From IMG/VR virus record IMGVR_UViG_3300027804_000001, positions 32,001-96,000 of that record: a stretch of DNA of 64,000 bases; one strand, written 5' to 3'. Source of the DNA: a virus (taxonomy: Duplodnaviria > Caudoviricetes). Shown here piece after piece: positions 21,980 to 32,548 of the stretch (its first letter is position 1; each line of letters begins with the position of its first letter). Below the pieces are notes generated by a model. That model was not told the DNA's origin and made no database searches. It worked only from the letters and a program-made list of their open reading frames with translations. Position numbers and translations under genes: made by a program.

Positions 21980-22036
21980 TAAAATACTTTTTTATAAATA
22001 TTTTTAAATTTTCTTGTATTTTCATATACTTATTGT

Positions 22037-22044
22037 TATCTTTG
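22037..22044 (+). promoter_or_regulatory. Bacteroidota -7 element for tRNA unit 1
   Basis: TATCTTTG upstream of the leader ORF. Confidence 0.7.
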
Positions 22045-22069
22045 TTAGAGATTTAAATAAAAAAGTTCG

Positions 22070-22174
22070 ATGAAACAAGTAAAACATATTATGCACTCGT
22101 TTACAATCTGTTCAAAATGGGCGGATGAGCGTGTTATGCTTTTGTCTCGAACTGAAGATATTAATAAGGGCTAA
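22070..22174 (+). CDS. Attenuator leader peptide 1 (34 aa)
   Basis: MKQVKHIMHSFTICSKWADERVMLLSRTEDINKG; 3' part carries the antiterminator strand. Confidence 0.75.
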   Translation: MKQVKHIMHSFTICSKWADERVMLLSRTEDINKG

Positions 22175-22230
22175 ATAAAGATTGGCTTTAAATATTCAGA
22201 ACCTCGGGACAAAATCTCGGGGTTTTTTGT
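22140..22230 (+). promoter_or_regulatory. Transcription attenuator 1 (antiterminator/terminator)
   Basis: Terminator AACCTCGGGA/TCTCGGGGTT plus T tract (22200-22230); TTTTGTCTCGA (22140-22150) pairs with TCGGGACAAAA (22204-22214); CTGAA pairs with TTCAG. Confidence 0.8.
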
Positions 22231-22234
22231 TTTT

Positions 22235-22307
22235 GGGCCGGATGTCAATGGCAGACCACCTGATTTGCAATCAGAGTGAATGGGTTCGATTCCCAACGCG
22301 TCCACCA
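22235..22307 (+). tRNA. tRNA-Ala(TGC), atypical acceptor stem
   Basis: Anticodon loop TTTGCAA, G3:U70, encoded CCA; C:C and G:G mismatches at pairs 5-6. Confidence 0.7.
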
Positions 22308-22368: not shown

Positions 22369-22441
22369 TCTTAGGTAGCTCAATGGTGAGAGCATCCGTC
22401 TGATACGCGGAAGGTTGATGGTTCGAGTCCATCTCTAAGAA
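22369..22441 (+). tRNA. tRNA-Ile(GAT)
   Basis: Full cloverleaf, loop CTGATAC. Confidence 0.92.
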
Positions 22442-22446
22442 CAATA

Positions 22447-22519
22447 GGAGATGAAGCTAACTTAGTAGAAGCGAAGGACTGAAAATCCTTAGGAGTTGGA
22501 GCGTAACCAACTATCTCCA
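22447..22519 (+). tRNA. tRNA-Phe(GAA), non-canonical T-loop
   Basis: AAGGA-CTGAAAA-TCCTT; T-loop AGCGTAA. Confidence 0.85.
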
Positions 22520-22524
22520 CAATT

Positions 22525-22598
22525 GACCTCTTAGCTCAGTTGGTTAGAGCACCTCACTTTTAATGAGGGAGTCCGCAGTTCGAGTCTGCGAGGGGTCA
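22525..22598 (+). tRNA. tRNA-Lys(TTT)
   Basis: Full cloverleaf, loop CTTTTAA. Confidence 0.95.
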
Positions 22599-22604
22599 CA
22601 ATAC

Positions 22605-22675
22605 ATGGGTGTGGTGCAATGGTAGCATTCCGGTCTCCAAAACCGTCGATGGGAGTTCGAATCTCTCCACCCGTG
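22605..22675 (+). tRNA. tRNA-Trp(CCA)
   Basis: Loop CTCCAAA, G73. Confidence 0.92.
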
Positions 22676-22693
22676 CAAAAATTAAATAAATGT

Positions 22694-22764
22694 GGTCTCA
22701 TAGTTTAATGGAAAAACGTCTCGCTACGGACGAGATGATTGGGGTTCGAATCCCTGTGAGACCT
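22694..22764 (+). tRNA. tRNA-Arg(ACG)
   Basis: TCTCG-CTACGGA-CGAGA. Confidence 0.92.
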
Positions 22765-22796
22765 CTGTTCATTGTTCGAGAACAAAGAACAAATAA

Positions 22797-22867
22797 GTCA
22801 GGTTGGCCGAGTGGTTAGGCTGAGGTCTGCAAAACCTCCTACATTGGTTCGAATCCAATACTTGACT
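22797..22867 (+). tRNA. tRNA-Cys(GCA)
   Basis: GAGGT-CTGCAAA-ACCTC, U73. Confidence 0.93.
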
Positions 22868-22869
22868 CT

Positions 22870-22945
22870 GTGATAGATGTTCGTATGGTAGAACCCAAGA
22901 TTGTGGCTCTTGGATTAGCGGGTTCGAATCCCGTCTATCACCCCA
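22870..22945 (+). tRNA. tRNA-His(GTG)
   Basis: Loop TTGTGGC; encoded G-1:C73. Confidence 0.9.
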
Positions 22946-22946
22946 T

Positions 22947-23018
22947 TGTGGGGAGGTTAGGTAACCCGTTTGGTCTCATAAGCCAGATATTCAGGTTCGA
23001 TTCCTGGCCCCGCAACCA
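22947..23018 (+). tRNA. tRNA-Met(CAT), probably elongator; short D-arm
   Basis: Loop CTCATAA, paired position 1:72, encoded CCA. Confidence 0.75.
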
Positions 23019-23059
23019 AAAAAAGATTAAAAATATTTTGTGATTTCACAATTTATTCT

Positions 23060-23067
23060 TATCTTTG
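23060..23067 (+). promoter_or_regulatory. Internal -7 promoter ahead of tRNA-fMet
   Basis: TATCTTTG; palindrome TTGTGATTTCACAA at 23038-23051 over the -33 region. Confidence 0.65.
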
Positions 23068-23077
23068 TAAAACAAAT

Positions 23078-23149
23078 CGCGAGATAGAGCAGCGGTAGCT
23101 CGGAAGGCTCATAACCTTTAGGTCGGGGGTTCGATTCCCTCTCTCGCAA
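23078..23149 (+). tRNA. tRNA-fMet(CAT)
   Basis: C1:A72 mismatch, loop CTCATAA. Confidence 0.88.
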
Positions 23150-23233
23150 CACTTGAGACTAACTCAACGAGGCTTTTGTCAACCAGAGCATGACTTGGAT
23201 GGTGCAGATTGAAGGTGGGTTAGAATCATTTTT

Positions 23234-23307
23234 GGTTTCTTGGTGTAGTGGCCTAACATGCCTCCCTGTCACGGAGGAGACCACGGGTTCGAATCCCGTA
23301 GGAACCG
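23234..23307 (+). tRNA. tRNA-Asp(GTC)
   Basis: CCTCC-CTGTCAC-GGAGG, G73. Confidence 0.95.
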
Positions 23308-23310
23308 CAA

Positions 23311-23472
23311 GTTGTTTCATACACTTAACACGCTTAGTAACAAAGCAAGGTACATAGAGTTACATAGAAGCATGGAGTGATTACCCGACGCTACATTCGG
23401 ACTACAAATGTGATTAGGTTCAGTCGTTGTAGAGAAAGAGATGTTAAGAGTAAACTTGCAAGTTGAAACAAC
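23311..23472 (+). ncRNA. Unidentified structured RNA between tRNA-Asp and tRNA-Ser
   Basis: Closing stems GTTGTTTCA/TGAAACAAC and CTTAACA/TGTTAAG, plus internal hairpins. Confidence 0.55.
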
Positions 23473-23476
23473 GATT

Positions 23477-23564
23477 GGAGAGATGGCAGAGTTGGCCGAT
23501 TGCGTCAGTCTTGAAAACTGAAGAACGGGAAACTGTTCCGTGGGTTCGAATCCTACTCTCTCCG
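23477..23564 (+). tRNA. tRNA-Ser(TGA)
   Basis: Long variable arm, loop CTTGAAA. Confidence 0.95.
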
Positions 23565-23569
23565 CACTT

Positions 23570-23641
23570 GCTCGGTTCGACTAGTGGTCAGGTCGCGTCC
23601 CTTTCACGGACGTAGCACGGGTTCGAATCCCGTACCGAGTA
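23570..23641 (+). tRNA. tRNA-Glu(TTC)
   Basis: CGTCC-CTTTCAC-GGACG. Confidence 0.95.
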
Positions 23642-23699
23642 CAAAAATTTTTTTATTATTTAAACTTTTTATATATTCACATATACTTATAAAACAGAG

Positions 23700-23804
23700 A
23701 TGAAGAATTTGAATAACATATCAACACTTAGTACGAGACCAGTTAATGGTAATGGGTATGGTGTGCAACCGTTATGTTACTCAAGTTCGGATTTCAAAAT
23801 GTAA
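23700..23804 (+). CDS. Attenuator leader peptide 2 (34 aa)
   Basis: MKNLNNISTLSTRPVNGNGYGVQPLCYSSSDFKM; 3' part carries the antiterminator strand. Confidence 0.75.
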   Translation: MKNLNNISTLSTRPVNGNGYGVQPLCYSSSDFKM

Positions 23805-23862
23805 GATTCAATCTACCTAAGATATCGAAACCCGAACTCAACAAAAAAGTTCGGGTTTTTTG
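23784..23862 (+). promoter_or_regulatory. Transcription attenuator 2 (antiterminator/terminator)
   Basis: Terminator AAACCCGAACT/AGTTCGGGTTT plus T tract; AGTTCGGATTTC (23784-23795) pairs 11/12 with GAAACCCGAACT (23827-23838). Confidence 0.82.
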
Positions 23863-23895
23863 TTTTAGTAATTTTTTATTCTTATATTTTATTAG

Positions 23896-23907
23896 GTTCT
23901 TTGACAT
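23896..23907 (+). promoter_or_regulatory. boxA-like antitermination element
   Basis: GTTCTTTGACAT just upstream of tRNA-Leu; recurs at 27150 and 29548. Confidence 0.55.
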
Positions 23908-23920
23908 TGTGGGAAAATTT

Positions 23921-24005
23921 GCCGAGGTGATGGAATGGTAGACATGACAGACTTAAAATCTGTTGGGACGAAAGTCCCGTGCGGGTTCGACTCCCGCTCT
24001 CGGTA
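23921..24005 (+). tRNA. tRNA-Leu(TAA)
   Basis: ACAGA-CTTAAAA-TCTGT, long variable arm. Confidence 0.95.
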
Positions 24006-24044
24006 CAAACACTATCGTTCTTTGGAAATAAAGGAGAAAATAAT

Positions 24045-24290
24045 ATGGATATATTATCATTTATTTTAGGAATGTCCGTTGTGGTGGTTATCGCGGTTGC
24101 GGTAGTTGCTGTAATGGCCTTTGTTAAGGTGAGAAAACATAACAAAGAAATTGATGAAATTCATCAAATAATCGGAAGAGAAATTGATGTACAAAACAGA
24201 GAGCGTGAAACAATTGTTCAAGACATATATCGAACACTAGATTCACGACTTGATAAACTTGAAAGTAAATTAAACAGCCGTAAGGCATAA
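24045..24290 (+). CDS. 81-aa single-TM coiled-coil protein inside the tRNA array
   Basis: Start refined to 24045 after AAGGAG; N-terminal hydrophobic helix; flanked by inverted repeats. Confidence 0.75.
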   Translation: MDILSFILGMSVVVVIAVAVVAVMAFVKVRKHNKEIDEIHQIIGREIDVQNRERETIVQDIYRTLDSRLDKLESKLNSRKA

Positions 24291-24329
24291 CAATTAAATA
24301 AAAAACTTTCAAAGACGATAGTGTTAATT

Positions 24330-24404
24330 GGTCTGATAGTTAAACGGATATAACAACTCTCTTCTAAAGAGTAATTCGTGGTTCGATTCCACGTCGGACT
24401 ACCA
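24330..24404 (+). tRNA. tRNA-Arg(TCT)
   Basis: ACTCT-CTTCTAA-AGAGT, encoded CCA. Confidence 0.93.
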
Positions 24405-24406
24405 TT

Positions 24407-24480
24407 CGGGATTTAGTACAGTCCGGTAGTATGCTTGGTTTGGGACCAAGAGGTCGTAGGTTCGAATCCTGCAATCCCGA
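24407..24480 (+). tRNA. tRNA-Pro(TGG)
   Basis: CTTGG-TTTGGGA-CCAAG. Confidence 0.95.
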
Positions 24481-24485
24481 CACTT

Positions 24486-24557
24486 GTCTTCTTAGCTCAG
24501 CGGTAGAGCATCTCGCTGTTAACGAGAGGGTCCAAGGTTCGAAACCTTGAGAGGACG
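24486..24557 (+). tRNA. tRNA-Asn(GTT)
   Basis: TCTCG-CTGTTAA-CGAGA, G73. Confidence 0.93.
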
Positions 24558-24563
24558 CAAATT

Positions 24564-24647
24564 GGCCGAGTGGTGGAATGGTAGACACGTTGGTCTTAGG
24601 AACCAATGTTGAAAAACGTGAGAGTTCGAATCTCTCCTTGGTCACCA
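24564..24647 (+). tRNA. tRNA-Leu(TAG)
   Basis: TTGGT-CTTAGGA-ACCAA, long variable arm, CCA. Confidence 0.95.
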
Positions 24648-24653
24648 ATAAAA

Positions 24654-24734
24654 TGGGGTATCGCATAGTGGCAATTGCGGGGGACTGTAAATCCCCTCTC
24701 ATTGAGTTCGGCGGTTCGAGTCCGTCTACCCCAA
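24654..24734 (+). tRNA. tRNA-Tyr(GTA)
   Basis: GGGGA-CTGTAAA-TCCCC, long variable arm. Confidence 0.92.
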
Positions 24735-24740
24735 CAAATT

Positions 24741-24814
24741 GGACTCGTAGCTCAGTTGGTCAGAGCAGGGCACTCATAATGCCAAGGTCGGGGGATCGTG
24801 ACCCTCCGGGTCCA
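24741..24814 (+). tRNA. tRNA(CAT), probably Ile2 (lysidine, reads ATA); non-canonical T-loop
   Basis: Loop CTCATAA, GGACTCG acceptor resembling Ile-type tRNAs, A73; T-loop ATCGTGA. Ile2 vs Met is inference. Confidence 0.7.
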
Positions 24815-24818
24815 CAAT

Positions 24819-24893
24819 AGAAGATTAGCTCAGAGGAAGAGCATTTGGTTTACATCCAAAGGGTCGGGATTTCAAAATTCTCATCTTCTACCA
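24819..24893 (+). tRNA. tRNA-Val(TAC), atypical T-arm
   Basis: TTTGG-TTTACAT-CCAAA; T-loop TTCAAAA; CCA. Confidence 0.85.
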
Positions 24894-24919
24894 AACTCGG
24901 AAGTAAAAACGAGACAAAT

Positions 24920-24995
24920 GCGGAAGTAGCTCATTAGGTAGAGCGTCTGCTTGCCAAGCAGAAGGTGGCCAGTTCGAGCCTGGTCTTCCGCTCCA
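24920..24995 (+). tRNA. tRNA-Gly(GCC)
   Basis: TCTGC-TTGCCAA-GCAGA, U73, CCA. Confidence 0.95.
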
Positions 24996-24998
24996 CAA

Positions 24999-25072
24999 GC
25001 TTCCTTAGCTCAGCAGGCCAGAGCACGTGATTTGTAATCTCGGGGTCGTCAGTTCGATTCTGACAGGAAGCT
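24999..25072 (+). tRNA. tRNA-Thr(TGT)
   Basis: Loop TTTGTAA. Confidence 0.92.
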
Positions 25073-25130
25073 CAAAAGGACTTTAATGGTTGAAGTACAA
25101 AACTGACGTAGGTTAGTCCCACCTACAAAT

Positions 25131-25202
25131 GCAGATGTCGTATAATGGCTATTACTCCATCCTTCCAAGTTGGAGACGAAGGTTCGATTCCTTTCATCTG
25201 CT
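25131..25202 (+). tRNA. tRNA-Gly(TCC)
   Basis: Loop CTTCCAA, U73. Confidence 0.92.
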
Positions 25203-25265
25203 CAATCATCAAAGAGACCGCTAAATCGAGTTAGTGAAAATCTACATTCTCAATGATGATTATTC

Positions 25266-25336
25266 TGTCCTTTAGTATAACGGTAGTACAGGTGGTTTTG
25301 GTCCATCTAGTTGGGGTTCGAATCCCTGAGGGACAA
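25266..25336 (+). tRNA. tRNA-Gln(TTG)
   Basis: GGTGG-TTTTGGT-CCATC, U1-A72. Confidence 0.92.
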
Positions 25337-25337
25337 C

Positions 25338-25577
25338 ATGGAATTAATAGCATACATAGGTGGAATATTACTTACAATTTGTGGTATACCTGAAGTCATT
25401 AGAACAATTAAAGATAAACGATGTCACTTAGGGTGGCCATTTTTATTATTATGGTTTTTTGGTGAGGTGTTTATGTTAATATATTCGGTTGATTTAAAAA
25501 GTTATCCATTAATAATGAATTATCTTTTTAATACCATTATTGTTGGGGTTATGTTATATTATAAAATAAAAAAATAA
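25338..25577 (+). CDS. PQ-loop / SemiSWEET-like 3-TM transporter
   Basis: Start refined to MELIAYIGG; ICGIPEVIRTIK PQ-loop-like motif, three TM helices, conserved N in TM3. Confidence 0.65.
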   Translation: MELIAYIGGILLTICGIPEVIRTIKDKRCHLGWPFLLLWFFGEVFMLIYSVDLKSYPLIMNYLFNTIIVGVMLYYKIKK

Positions 25578-25590
25578 AATAAAATAAACT

Positions 25591-25890
25591 ATGTGGTTAT
25601 ATGTCTTAGTATTTTTCTTTCAAGTTTTATTCAATGTTTTTAAAACTATGGAGATAAAATACACTTATGAGAATAAAGTTAAACAACTTGTGTTTAATTC
25701 GGTATGGATAAATCTTGTATCATTAGGTTCAACTTATTTTGCACTTGATAGATTATTTGCCAAAGATTGGACGGTTATTATTGTTTATATAAGTGGTAGT
25801 GTTTTTGGTAAATGGTGGGCAATGACACACTTTGTAAATTATGAAAATAAATTTTACGAATTTTTAAATAAAAGAAAAACAAAAAAATAA
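25591..25890 (+). CDS. Small multi-TM protein (DUF5698/UPF0316-like)
   Basis: Three hydrophobic segments, YISGSVFGKW-type motif. Confidence 0.5.
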   Translation: MWLYVLVFFFQVLFNVFKTMEIKYTYENKVKQLVFNSVWINLVSLGSTYFALDRLFAKDWTVIIVYISGSVFGKWWAMTHFVNYENKFYEFLNKRKTKK

Positions 25891-25893
25891 AAT

Positions 25894-26127
25894 ATGTATT
25901 TAACATTTCACATTATCTGTATCATTTATTGTATGTATCAACTAATAAAAAAATACAATAAATTATCAAATCCCGGTATGATTGGTGTATCTCCTGGTTT
26001 AGAGACCATTATGGTCATTGTATTAGCTCCTGCACTTGCAATTGTTGATGTATCATTAACATGGATTCGTTGGTATAAAGAAGCCGAAGAAGCTAGAAGA
26101 AGAAATGACGAAAGAAAAATTTTTTAG
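25894..26127 (+). CDS. Small membrane protein
   Basis: 77 aa; stop codon abuts tRNA-Ser. Confidence 0.65.
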   Translation: MYLTFHIICIIYCMYQLIKKYNKLSNPGMIGVSPGLETIMVIVLAPALAIVDVSLTWIRWYKEAEEARRRNDERKIF

Positions 26128-26212
26128 GAGAGTTACCCAAGTTGGTGAAGGGGGCAGTTTGCTAAACTGTTAGGGTGTTAAAGCCGCGAGGGTTCGAGCC
26201 CCTCACTCTCCG
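26127..26212 (+). tRNA. tRNA-Ser(GCT)
   Basis: GCAGT-TTGCTAA-ACTGT, long variable arm, G73. Confidence 0.93.
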
Positions 26213-26217
26213 CAAAT

Positions 26218-26415: not shown

Positions 26416-26877
26416 ATGAAACAATTTAGAACTCTCTATGGGACAAATATTCCTAACTTGATTGAGTATGTTAGAGAATACATCTCAACAAGAGAGAACG
26501 TAGAAATTCTCATCGGATCTGACTCACAATGTTATGGAAATAAGAAAACCATTTATGGTGTTGTAATAGCATTATATACACCAGGGAAAGGTGCACATGT
26601 TTTATGTACTCGTGAGACAACTTCGATGGAATATAATACACCATCTAGATTGTTAAATGAGGTTTGGAAATCTATTGAAATTGCGGAATGGTTAAAAGAA
26701 AATGGATTACCTAAACCTACATGGATTGATATTGATTTAAATCCTGACCCAAAGTATAAATCTAATTCCGTATTAAGACAGGCAGTTGGTTTAGTCGAGG
26801 GTATGGGATATAAAGTTAGGTATAAACACTTAGGTGCGTTAACAACATATGCTGCTAATCATTTAGTACGTATTTAA
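26416..26877 (+). CDS. YkuK-like RNase H-fold protein (DUF458)
   Basis: ILIGSDSQ, RLLNEVWKSIEIA, IDIDLNPD, AANHL motifs. Confidence 0.75.
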   Translation: MKQFRTLYGTNIPNLIEYVREYISTRENVEILIGSDSQCYGNKKTIYGVVIALYTPGKGAHVLCTRETTSMEYNTPSRLLNEVWKSIEIAEWLKENGLPKPTWIDIDLNPDPKYKSNSVLRQAVGLVEGMGYKVRYKHLGALTTYAANHLVRI

Positions 26878-27120: not shown

Positions 27121-27128
27121 TATATTTG
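27121..27128 (+). promoter_or_regulatory. -7 promoter of the large ncRNA
   Basis: TATATTTG followed by boxA-like GTTCTTTGAC at 27150-27159. Confidence 0.7.
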
Positions 27129-27134
27129 TAAAAC

Positions 27135-27970
27135 AATCGGAAACGATAAGTTCTTTGACTAAAAATATTGGCCGCCTATGGTCATTAAATAAACTGTGAA
27201 AGCAGTATAAAGTGAATCTGAATTAGTTATTCAGGTTTGCGGTTTCAGAAATGGAACTTGAGTAGGCAAGCGGGATATCATCGAACCTTAAGTACTGAGG
27301 GTGACACTTTAGGGAAAGTGGTTTGGTGACCAAGCGATACCGGTCGTTTGGTTGAGGTGGGAACACCAATAAGAATAACTCGTAGAATTATTGTAAAAAG
27401 TATGGTCTCCAACTATACAATTGCGTGATTCAATACAATGGGAATCTTAAAACCGAAAGGTATGGTGATGTACAGGTGGTGCTGTTATTATCCTTGATTT
27501 GAATCTACCAAGATTCTTATCTCGAAGGGGTCCAAAAGTATGGAGGTAGGGATATCTCAGAGGGTAGTTTAGTATCGTGTTGTTCAAAAGATGACATGTC
27601 TGGTGACGAGCCACTACCTTCCAAATCGGTAACTAAAATCATTTTGTTAATTTTGGTTTAACAAACTTAAATACAAAAGGAAAAGTGCTCGTCAGTCGTT
27701 AGAGACAGGTGACTACATAGTCGTGAGGGGTTCACGGCCACAAAGGGTCCCAAGCCCAATGTGAATTGTAAGAAAGTTCTCTAGTCCCGCAAGGATTAAT
27801 CGGGGTGGCAACCTCGAAGAGTAATGAGTAAGATGAGAGTATCTAATGACTTAAGGATTGGTTAATCTAATTGACCGTCACTGGTTGGTACAGTTCAAAA
27901 GACTGTGGATAAGAAAGGAAACAATAATCTTTCTAAAGTCAACTACTAAAACTTGTAATCTCAGAGTTTT
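27135..27970 (+). ncRNA. Large structured ncRNA, GOLLD-like
   Basis: About 830 nt without a credible ORF, GC-richer than flanks, many hairpins (ACC-GAAA-GGT, GGGGT-GGCAA-CCTC, CAGT-TCAAAAG-ACTG), ends ..TGTAATCTCAG..; size and tRNA-adjacent phage context fit GOLLD; family call from memory, not a model search. Confidence 0.65.
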
Positions 27971-29526: not shown

Positions 29527-29561
29527 AATATTTATATCTTTACATTAGTTCTTTAAAATAT

Positions 29562-29955
29562 GGGGGTGTCTGGTATTGATTGGCGTTAATATGATAGGTG
29601 GGCACGTAGTCGGATGTCATCTACGACTTTAATCAACGGTGGTAAAATTCAAACGGCAACGTTTACAACAAAATGGAAGCTTGCGGATTAATTGCAACTT
29701 CTAACGTAGCAGTAGCCTAAGGCGAGACTACATTCGGGTCGGTTAGGACATTAACCTAGGAACAGAAGTCCAATATACGGGTCACAGGTCAGAGCTCGTT
29801 TAAAATAATTCTGAGACCAGGTTGTTTATAGGTTGGTTTCCCACATACATCAAACCTAATATTTCGGAACATTGAGAAACAATGTTGTAATAAACGTGTA
29901 GTCCATTTATGGTATTGCGAGCAAGACACGGGTTCGACTCCCGTCACCTCCACCA
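29562..29955 (+). ncRNA. ssrA: tmRNA
   Basis: Ala acceptor GGGGGTG/CACCTCC-ACCA with G3:U70, T-arm GGTTCGACTCC; tag ORF 29655-29720 GNVYNKMEACGLIATSNVAVA*. Confidence 0.93.
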
Positions 29956-31594: not shown

Positions 31595-32548
31595 TTAAGT
31601 ATATAAACGTGCTAAAGTTTTTAACCAAGCCAAATTCATAAGAGCACTTCCCGCATCGGCAATACCCGATGAATCATTACCATTTAACGAATTTAATTCT
31701 TCTTGTGATACAACACCACCTTGATTTATCATTTGACTAAATCTCGGGTCATTTGCTAATTGTTCTCTAAATTGAGAATCGGTTTGAAGTTTCTCTTGAA
31801 AAGATTCAAAATTTGGTAAACCAAAAATATCCAATATTCCATTAGCAATTATAAATTGTTTTATTAAGTTCCTTCTGTCTTTTCTACCAGTTCTAACAAT
31901 ATACCACCAATTTTTTATCCAGTTACTTGGTTTCTGTCCATTTTTTACAATGTATTTTGCAAGTCTTTCTTCTCTAAAAAAGTTTTTTATACCCATTGCA
32001 ACAGGACCCCCTCCTGTTAACATTTTTAATGTACTTGGAGCACCTTGTGCTGCAATTTCTTTACCCACCCTTTGACCGATTCTGGCTGGTTTCAATTTAG
32101 ACACTGTTGATTTTAATGAGTTAACAGCATCTAACATTTTTTGACCCCAACTAGAATTAACTTTATTTAAATTTTTAACTGTTCCTGTTACACCTGGATG
32201 ATCAAAATATTTTGACATTTTAATAAATTGTTCTTTAGCCGCGGGATTAGACATTAAATATTTTGCCATGTCATCACTACTACTTAATGCCGCTTTACCA
32301 ACAGGACCAGCAGATTTTAAAAACCTAATAAACGGTTTGGCAATAATATCACCAACAGTTGGTATTAATGCAATTAACATTAAACCCGCATAAATATATT
32401 CTTTTCTATAAAGATATAGACCAATTAATGCGATATCGGCAATTTCACCTATAACAGGTATAAAACCTGCAACCATTAATCCCGTTTCCCAACCATCTTC
32501 TTTAAGTAATTCTCTATTTTCTAATATTTGTTTTTTTGTTATTTCCAT
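31595..32548 (-). CDS. Hypothetical protein with pre-toxin-TG-like motif (possible virion/ejected protein)
   Basis: AGFIPVIGEIADIA ... LIPTVGD motif. Confidence 0.6.
   Translation of the reverse strand: MEITKKQILENRELLKEDGWETGLMVAGFIPVIGEIADIALIGLYLYRKEYIYAGLMLIALIPTVGDIIAKPFIRFLKSAGPVGKAALSSSDDMAKYLMSNPAAKEQFIKMSKYFDHPGVTGTVKNLNKVNSSWGQKMLDAVNSLKSTVSKLKPARIGQRVGKEIAAQGAPSTLKMLTGGGPVAMGIKNFFREERLAKYIVKNGQKPSNWIKNWWYIVRTGRKDRRNLIKQFIIANGILDIFGLPNFESFQEKLQTDSQFREQLANDPRFSQMINQGGVVSQEELNSLNGNDSSGIADAGSALMNLAWLKTLARLYT

Follow-up and report, generated by a model that had tools for sequence, protein, structure and literature searches.

A probable leader-peptide attenuator ahead of a tRNA gene block in an uncultured phage, with leader codons matching the downstream tRNAs

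Leader-peptide attenuators are familiar from enterobacteria, where they are represented by ilvGMEDA (Ile, Val and Leu codons), thr (Thr and Ile codons), trpL, hisL, leuL and pheL. The pheST attenuator of E. coli places phenylalanyl-transfer RNA (tRNA) synthetase under leader-peptide control. T-box riboswitches, which regulate synthetase, biosynthesis and transport genes, bind uncharged tRNA through a specifier codon and the T-box sequence, and translation is not needed. Here, we describe a locus of an uncultured phage that appears to bring the tRNA genes themselves under such control. The stretch analyzed comprises 64,000 nucleotides (nt), i.e., positions 32,001 to 96,000 of the IMG/VR record IMGVR_UViG_3300027804_000001, and is referred to below as the window. 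The locus, element 2, occupies a 278-nt gap between tRNA-Glu (end 23642) and tRNA-Leu (start 23921). In terms of mechanism class, it is very probably a ribosome-mediated (trp-type) transcription attenuator ahead of a block of phage tRNA genes, block 2.

Element 2 resembles the enterobacterial attenuators in having a short leader open reading frame (ORF), alternative 1:2, 2:3 and 3:4 helices and an intrinsic terminator. Unlike those attenuators, which serve biosynthetic enzymes, its targets are phage tRNA genes. In place of runs of codons for one to three amino acids, the 13 tRNA species are represented by approximately one codon each, and the leader of a sister family covers 18 amino acids. 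A further difference is that the phage leader tracks the gene content of its block in evolution, with matching codon boxes (AGA vs CGN, AGT vs TCN, ATA vs ATY). The likeness to pheST lies in the leader-peptide attenuation of a component of the translation apparatus, responsive to the decoding of cognate codons; pheST, however, has a synthetase as its target, senses a single amino acid and is cellular, whereas element 2 is viral. With the T-box, element 2 shares a terminator/antiterminator switch that would report tRNA status. Assignment to the T-box riboswitches was rejected, since no Rfam T-box match was obtained in the window at the gathering threshold and the region is coding. The Rfam scan of the window yielded tRNA, transfer-messenger RNA (tmRNA) and GOLLD only, and no leader family.

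The window has a G+C content of ~30%. ARAGORN and Rfam located 25 tRNA genes on the + strand (22369-26213), a weak tRNA-Ala(UGC)-like gene at 22235-22304, a GOLLD RNA at 27560-27967 and a tmRNA at 29562-29955. The relatives are IMG/VR contigs with lengths up to ~320 kb, denoted by L numbers. Their tRNA gene order is largely kept, block 1 running from Ala/Ile to Glu and block 2 from Leu(UAA) to Ser(GCU). The element 2 unit is 68-79% identical across ~280 nt in many related phage contigs, and the unit preceding block 1 (attenuator 1, with leader 1) shows likewise 68-79% identity in many of them. The features are listed in Table 1.

The codons of leader 2 correspond to the tRNA genes that follow it. 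Within the sensing stretch (n = 24 codons), 21 codons are read by block-2 tRNAs, two by block-1 tRNAs (AAG and TCA) and one by neither (ATA). Relative to the genome-wide fraction of block-2-read codons (0.49), this bias has a binomial p value of 1e-4. Leader 1 is biased in the opposite direction (16 vs 6), and the Fisher test of leader 2 vs leader 1 gave p = 1.3e-5. Codons 1-25 of leader 2 cover 13/13 block-2 tRNA species, which was achieved by only 3 of the 13,519 control windows, taken as in-frame 25-codon windows from the long ORFs of the phage. Leader 1 covers 12/12 block-1 species; none of the control windows (0/13,519) did so. The match between leader and block holds at the level of the codon box. 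Leader 2 contains AGA, ATA, GGT and GGG (both Gly), and TTR and CTN (both Leu). AGT is present in leader 2 of every homologue, with occasional TCN (TCA in the window). In leader 1, the boxes are TCN, ATT/ATC and CGN, although codon 2 is invariably AGA in many relatives. The regulatory codons would thus correspond to the regulated function, as is characteristic of attenuators.

The codon match ends abruptly toward the 3' end of the leader. The share of own-block codons is ~100% from 19 to 4 codons before the codon with the G of GTTCGG; one codon closer, at a distance of 3 codons, it drops to 6/17. The stop codon follows the core of segment 2 at a distance of 10 nt. Given the established size of the ribosome footprint, the abrupt end points to the boundary expected for a stalled ribosome that leaves segment 2 free. 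The predicted geometry is that required of an attenuator and is found in the enterobacterial examples: a ribosome halted at the stall sites would spare segment 2, and a finishing ribosome would cover it from the stop codon.

The leaders also differ in accordance with the location of the tRNA genes. Counted over all distinct leader-2 homologues, the sensing stretch contains a cognate codon for 213/214 tRNA-in-block cells, a count that is descriptive only, as the rows are kin. In L110, the block that follows the leader-2 homologue includes the tRNAs for Glu and Asp, but not those for Gln, Arg(UCU) and Ser(GCU). E and D are new in the sensing stretch of this homologue, Q, R and S have disappeared from it, and the leader-1 homologue of the same contig shows WASQR in place of WADER. 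In the L041-L056 clade, the Val and Thr tRNAs are shifted to block 1; leader 1 has gained V (WAEVAD), and leader 2 is devoid of any Thr codon. Ser(UGA) is found within block 2 in L107 and L113, where leader 2 has gained TCG and TCA. In L115, a leader-1-type ORF precedes Pro-Asn-Leu-Gln, and its core has changed from IICSKWADER to SNQPNWNELP. According to this comparison, the leaders are rewritten to match when tRNAs shift between blocks.

The substitution pattern indicates that leader 2 is a coding sequence. A preliminary description of the locus had proposed a 34-codon leader of the same length as the leader 1 ORF and with no sequence in common with it. Both statements were confirmed, the two peptides having only 'MK' in common. 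Duplication of one leader into the other was considered and rejected, because no common sequence was found except for a promoter-proximal motif. For the coding and structure counts, 19 distinct leader-2 homologues from IMG/VR phage contigs were used. The frame is open for 30-36 codons in 19/19, and the other frames run into a stop within 0-16 codons. Indels come in multiples of three, and the peptide is conserved in sequence. The entropy is 0.52 at third codon positions vs 0.28 at positions 1 and 2. Pairwise differences across codons 6-25 include 131 synonymous ones in the leader frame vs 7 and 16 in the shifted frames. The pattern over the 19 homologues is of the coding type. Inspection of the peptide revealed no hydrophobic or other recognisable feature. 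There is no Shine-Dalgarno site before leader 2, and the upstream region is A-rich. This is normal for the phage, because such sites are at background level before its ordinary genes too (3/47 long ORFs, with upstream regions of 48% A).

The equal length of the two leaders had been ascribed to a shared geometry of ribosome and polymerase. This interpretation did not survive the comparison with relatives, where the two lengths are 32 vs 35 codons (L017), 29 vs 34 (L049) and 33 vs 30 (L110). The equality (34 = 34) is a coincidence of the window genome. All three leader families described here fall within 29-36 codons, a range compatible with a loose kinetic or geometric constraint.

The predicted RNA structures provide the elements of a switch. 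The terminator consists of a G+C-rich 12-bp stem (23827-23859), a 9-nt loop (23839-23847) and the T tract, and it is located between the leader and the regulated genes, where an attenuator would need it. It was not called by a consensus scan with a loop limit of 8 nt. Near the 3' end of the leader, codons 29-32 (AGTTCGGATTTC) had been described as a near copy of the terminator 3' arm, and they do agree with AGTTCGGGTTTT at 10/12 positions. Folding of 23690-23870 gave z = -4.9 vs 200 shuffles, which, together with the conservation of the unit, exceeds what chance would produce. The minimum-free-energy structure, corresponding to the state without a ribosome, contained a long 1:2 hairpin and the terminator. 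Masking the 5' part and leaving out segment 4, which mimics a stalled ribosome, shifted the minimum to the 2:3 helix. Duplex energies were -8.5 (1:2), -13.9 (2:3) and -18.1 kcal/mol (3:4). Two further hallmarks of attenuators are therefore predicted, i.e., an antiterminator mutually exclusive with the terminator, and a 1:2 helix that would make termination the default.

The family alignment refined these helices. The antiterminator of 11/12 pairs proposed earlier is found in the window, where AGTTCGGATTTC pairs with GAAACCCGAACT with one A.C mismatch; in the family, only a core is kept, and the family-wide antiterminator is 7-8 bp rather than 11 of 12. The 1:2 pairing, previously described as weak and G:U-rich, does exist as a helix of 8 bp, although with only one G.U it is not especially G:U-rich. 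The core of segment 2, GTTCGGA, is invariant in 19/19 homologues, and so is GTTCGGG in the terminator 3' arm; segment 2 copies this arm save for an invariant A in place of G. The segment-3 core, CCCGAAC, has one variable position (A to G in 2/19, with pairing kept as G.U) and is otherwise invariant. The A.C mismatch past the core is invariant in the family, and the antiterminator is therefore always weaker than the terminator.

Covariation was observed for the flanks of the cores and for the 1:2 helix. Covariation as a triplet (A/U/A in 6 sequences, U/A/U in 7) links the base on the 5' side of GTTCGG in segments 2 and 4 to the segment-3 base with which it pairs, on the 3' side of CCGAAC. The flanking 2:3 pair is AU in 6, UA in 7 and UG in 1, and the loop-proximal 3:4 pair is UA in 6, AU in 7 and GU in 3, giving 14/19 and 16/19 paired cells, respectively, vs a shuffle mean of ~9 in both cases. 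Over the 19 homologues, the 3:4 helix is 98% paired. The 1:2 helix was independently predicted by RNAalifold, and three of its positions show compensatory double changes (UA/AU 10:8, AU/GC 10:8, AU/GC/UA 7:6:3). This helix has 95% of its cells paired vs at most 44% with a slid partner. Its variable pairs are paired in 70/76 cells, which was matched by 0/2000 shuffles; as the shuffles ignore phylogeny, these values are not probabilities. Support from compensatory changes extends to the 1:2 helix and to the flanks of the 2:3 and 3:4 helices.

We propose the following mechanism. In the absence of a ribosome, segments 1 and 2 would pair, segment 3 would be free for segment 4, and the polymerase would stop at the T tract. 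A ribosome on the 34-codon leader would open the 1:2 helix. If unhindered, it would reach the stop codon and cover segment 2, the 3:4 terminator would form, and the tRNA genes would remain unread from the leader start. If stalled anywhere in codons 2-25, it would leave segment 2 free to pair with the emerging segment 3, and the terminator would be blocked. The polymerase would then continue past the boxA-like element into tRNA-Leu and the next twelve tRNA genes. The codons of the sensing stretch are those read by these thirteen tRNAs, and block-2 transcription should therefore rise whenever one of the tRNAs decodes slowly, owing to a low level or low charging. In effect, tRNA supply would be subject to OR-gated negative feedback. 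We infer the translation of the leader, the termination efficiency, the kinetics and the physiological signal from the sequence. Candidate signals would be host tRNA loss, either in infection or by anticodon nucleases, or amino-acid shortage.

Two other leaders seem to operate in a similar manner. Attenuator 1 appears to have the same logic as element 2. In this attenuator, segment 2 (GTCTCGA) resembles the 3' arm of the terminator and pairs with its 5' arm, and relatives carry compensatory CTCGGGAC / CCTGAGAC variants. The tRNA-Ala-like gene begins 8 nt past the T tract of attenuator 1, which leaves no room for a second promoter behind leader 1. A third leader family was found in other contigs. 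Its leader has ~31 codons, starts with MKHC, ends with GLMM and is unrelated to leaders 1 and 2. The first 26 codons specify every amino acid but Gly and Thr (18 in total), the very two whose tRNAs are located upstream of the leader. This composition was found in 0/28,866 control windows. A terminator of its own is likewise present in the family, as is a segment 2 that mimics the terminator arm. The same boxA-like motif as in element 2 directly follows the T tract, with no promoter box between them.

The promoter of leader 2 was assigned by means of the relatives. In the preliminary description, TATACTTAT was regarded as the promoter core. This was not borne out, as a canonical -7 box (TATATTTG or TATCTTTG) lies directly upstream in relatives. 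An exact TAnnTTTG, which we take to be the Bacteroidota promoter consensus, is present as TATATTTG, TATCTTTG or TAAATTTG at the aligned position in 15/20 distinct relatives, ~20 nt before the ATG. The conserved CATATACTTAT is found before leader 1 too, at 22023. A sigma-70-type promoter for leader 2 (TTTAAA-N17-TATACT) was ranked below the Bacteroidota-type box of the relatives. TTGACA (23899-23904) was rejected as a -35 element, because the matching -10 would fall within the tRNA. No terminator was found between tRNA-Glu and leader 2, so block-1 transcripts can enter leader 2 as well.

The boxA-like element reported earlier, GTTCTTTGACA, is conserved, and most element-2 relatives keep GTTCTTTG. 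We take GTTCTTTGACA to resemble the boxA of rrn-type (NusB/NusE) antitermination. Like rrn boxA, the motif heads stable-RNA genes, namely the tRNA block, GOLLD and tmRNA. Unlike in rrn-type antitermination, GTTCTTTGACA is located downstream of the attenuator terminator and cannot, because of this location, override it; it could instead be part of a promoter. Similar motifs are present at 24017, at 27150 (before GOLLD, 21 nt past a TATATTTG box) and at 29548 (14 nt before tmRNA). The -7-type box TATATTTG and the boxA-like GTTCTTTGACT stand ahead of GOLLD (27121-27160), and TATCTTTA and GTTCTTTAAAA stand likewise ahead of tmRNA (29534-29558). These box pairs suggest a common expression signal for the stable RNAs of the phage. 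The motif at 24017 (GTTCTTTGGAA) belongs to a segment after tRNA-Leu (24017-24290) in which a small ORF starts at 24047. Its product begins with a hydrophobic, membrane-helix-like stretch, and a similar 80-residue ORF precedes tRNA-Leu in L074.

A number of observations weigh against the attenuator reading of element 2, and those with the greatest bearing concern the region behind the terminator. The preliminary description had named an independent promoter past the terminator as evidence against attenuation, and this applies in part: an exact TAnnTTTG box lies between the terminator and tRNA-Leu in 14/20 distinct relatives, and a degenerate TATATTTT, with a final T instead of G, in the window. 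In the 14 relatives, the TTTG of the T tract sits 17-20 nt (mostly 19-20) upstream of this box, at the spacing appropriate for a -33 element. In the window, the -7 box of the leader, TATATTCA, is degenerate as well. Moreover, L012, L090 and L091 are without leader 2, yet they keep the terminator and the promoter-like and boxA-like segment before tRNA-Leu; it follows that leader 2 is dispensable and not a prerequisite for block-2 expression. Because of the box in 14/20 relatives, the attenuator is probably not the sole input to block 2, and most family members probably have a separate promoter for this block as well. Such data would be expected if element 2 were an independent micro-gene (promoter, 34-residue peptide and terminator) serving some separate function, with block 2 read only from the promoter after a terminator that just ends the upstream unit, and the conserved peptide sequence would be in line with this as well. 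We find this improbable, as it leaves unexplained why the peptide codons cover 13/13 downstream tRNAs and avoid the upstream ones, why the leader changes upon tRNA moves between blocks, why the codon match ends 4 codons before segment 2, and why the 3' end of the ORF is an invariant copy of the terminator arm. A peptide without a recognisable feature also argues against it. No TAnnTTTG box was found behind the terminator of leader 1, the L110 leader or the third family, and neither leader 1 nor the third family has a promoter between terminator and tRNAs. A translation-coupled element with an output other than read-through, such as occlusion of the downstream promoter or the stability or processing of a block-1 precursor, is improbable too, if by a shade less so. 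The T tract does overlap the putative -33 element of the downstream promoter, and long precursors are plausible with no terminator between block 1 and leader 2. This has to be set against the fact that a terminator/antiterminator pair is the standard design for read-through control, and that in L110 and the third family the tRNAs are directly behind the terminator, with no promoter to occlude. The attenuator would, in most relatives, probably be an added inducible input on top of a basal promoter after the terminator, and not the only gate.

The strong predicted structure and the missing Shine-Dalgarno site would also suit a structured non-coding RNA, i.e., a small RNA or a terminator switch under the control of a protein or ligand, with an incidental ORF. 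This is the least credible of the alternatives, and we give it hardly any weight: the frame is open in all 19 homologues with indels in threes, synonymous differences exceed those in the shifted frames by far, phage genes are generally without Shine-Dalgarno sites, and no Rfam family matches the element. For the attenuator reading itself, the misfit codons AAG (codon 2) and TCA (codon 8) in the sensing stretch are unfavorable, and so are the ATA codons, unless they are read by the block-2 CAU tRNA as a lysidine-modified Ile tRNA. The distal 4 bp of the antiterminator showed no covariation support (42/76 cells paired, equal to the shuffle mean), and the control shuffles were blind to phylogeny. 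The terminator is the more stable structure at equilibrium, and antitermination must therefore be kinetic, like in the classical attenuators. RNA runs with parts of the tRNA array of the window came from freshwater and river metatranscriptomes. In runs X4 and X7, river contigs extend across the terminator (23744-23891) at a depth of 2-3, but they show neither strand nor ends and cannot separate RNA from DNA carry-over. The case for translation, termination and read-through rests on sequence analysis. Within these limits, the core reading of element 2, a leader-peptide attenuator with terminator, antiterminator and anti-antiterminator, is strongly supported.

Table 1. Predicted features of element 2, its target block and the related leaders (window coordinates unless a contig is given)
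Feature	Position	Strand	Details
Leader-2 promoter region	23672-23690	+	degenerate -7 box TATATTCA 23672-23679, then conserved CATATACTTAT 23680-23690
Leader ORF 2	23700-23804	+	34 codons (ATG + 33 codons, then TAA); sensing stretch = codons 2-25
Segment 1 (anti-antiterminator 5' arm)	23705-23712	+	codons 2-5; pairs with 23781-23788
Segment 2	23781-23795	+	partner of segment 1: 23781-23788; partner of segment 3 (antiterminator): 23784-23795 (AGTTCGGATTTC)
Segment 3 (terminator 5' arm, GAAACCCGAACT)	23827-23838	+	common to antiterminator and terminator
Segment 4 and T tract	23848-23866	+	terminator 3' arm AGTTCGGGTTTT 23848-23859; T tract TTTTTTGTTTT up to 23866
Possible second promoter	23859-23890	+	TTTG 23859-23862 (in T tract), 20 nt later TATATTTT 23883-23890
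boxA-like GTTCTTTGACA	23896-23906	+	14 nt before tRNA-Leu
Regulated tRNA block 2	23921-26213	+	Leu(UAA), Arg(UCU), Pro, Asn, Leu(UAG), Tyr, CAU, Val, Gly(GCC), Thr, Gly(UCC), Gln, Ser(GCU); ARAGORN + Rfam
Attenuator 1	22003-22234		promoter box TATCTTTG 22037-22044; ORF 22070-22174
Third leader family	L063:7952-8134, L068:9116-9298, L073:2831-3013		before Phe-Pro-Lys-Val-Tyr-Ile-His and following tRNAs

Searches outside IMG/VR yielded little. The tRNA region gave no match to GenBank phages by megablast, and in a distant search tRNA-Leu alone matched, in crAss-like, Lak and cyanophages. A protein search with a 153-residue neighbor found no close cultured relative, and a 123-residue upstream neighbor gave spurious 30-residue matches only. 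PHROGs and Pfam scans of the neighboring genes provided no clue to the host. We infer a Bacteroidota host solely from the TAnnTTTG promoter boxes and the missing Shine-Dalgarno sites.

The 153-residue protein (phrog_11311, 26416-26877), encoded inside or beside the tRNA arrays, is conserved in at least 80 viral contigs, with identities from 94% to ~50%. Its homologues are annotated as DUF458 or 'ribonuclease' in GenBank phage records. Because it is often found between tRNA blocks, it may act in tRNA processing. Within block 1, an exact TATCTTTG box (23060-23067) lies 10 nt before an initiator-type tRNA (C1.A72 mismatch) at 23078. This box is a candidate promoter within block 1, but a single 8-mer could arise by chance. 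The 168-nt spacer between tRNA-Asp and tRNA-Ser(UGA), at 23309-23476, is 94-95% identical in L090, L091 and L061, although L061 is otherwise distant (57% identity in the 153-residue protein). Contigs from RNA libraries cover 23309-23447 of this spacer with zero mismatches. The spacer has no Rfam match and may be a conserved or mobile non-coding RNA. In L041, L051, L056, L100 and L129, ARAGORN reported tRNAs with a CUA anticodon ('Pyl', amber-reading). These may be suppressor tRNAs, which have been reported for other large phages.

To our knowledge, next to nothing has been described on how phages control their own tRNA genes, and we know of no leader-peptide attenuation of tRNA genes; full-text literature searches found no description of the latter. 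If element 2 works as proposed, a textbook mechanism would be extended to a new target, the decoders themselves, and to a new sensor, with one codon per tRNA species. Removal of any single block tRNA would be predicted to induce the block. The leaders would also offer a means, from sequence alone, of recognizing the sets of tRNA genes that a phage regulates as a unit, and they could serve as compact reporters of decoding capacity. More tentatively, and with somewhat less than even confidence, we suggest that phage tRNA arrays may be self-regulating, each block being headed by a 'codon sampler' leader that carries one codon per tRNA species and switches the block on when any species fails. Such leaders would be a built-in sensor of host tRNA loss, including cleavage by anticodon nucleases, and a general, evolvable design that is rewritten on tRNA shuffling. 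This would bear on the purpose of the tRNA arrays of large phages, which may compensate for host tRNA loss or allow escape from tRNA-targeting defences.

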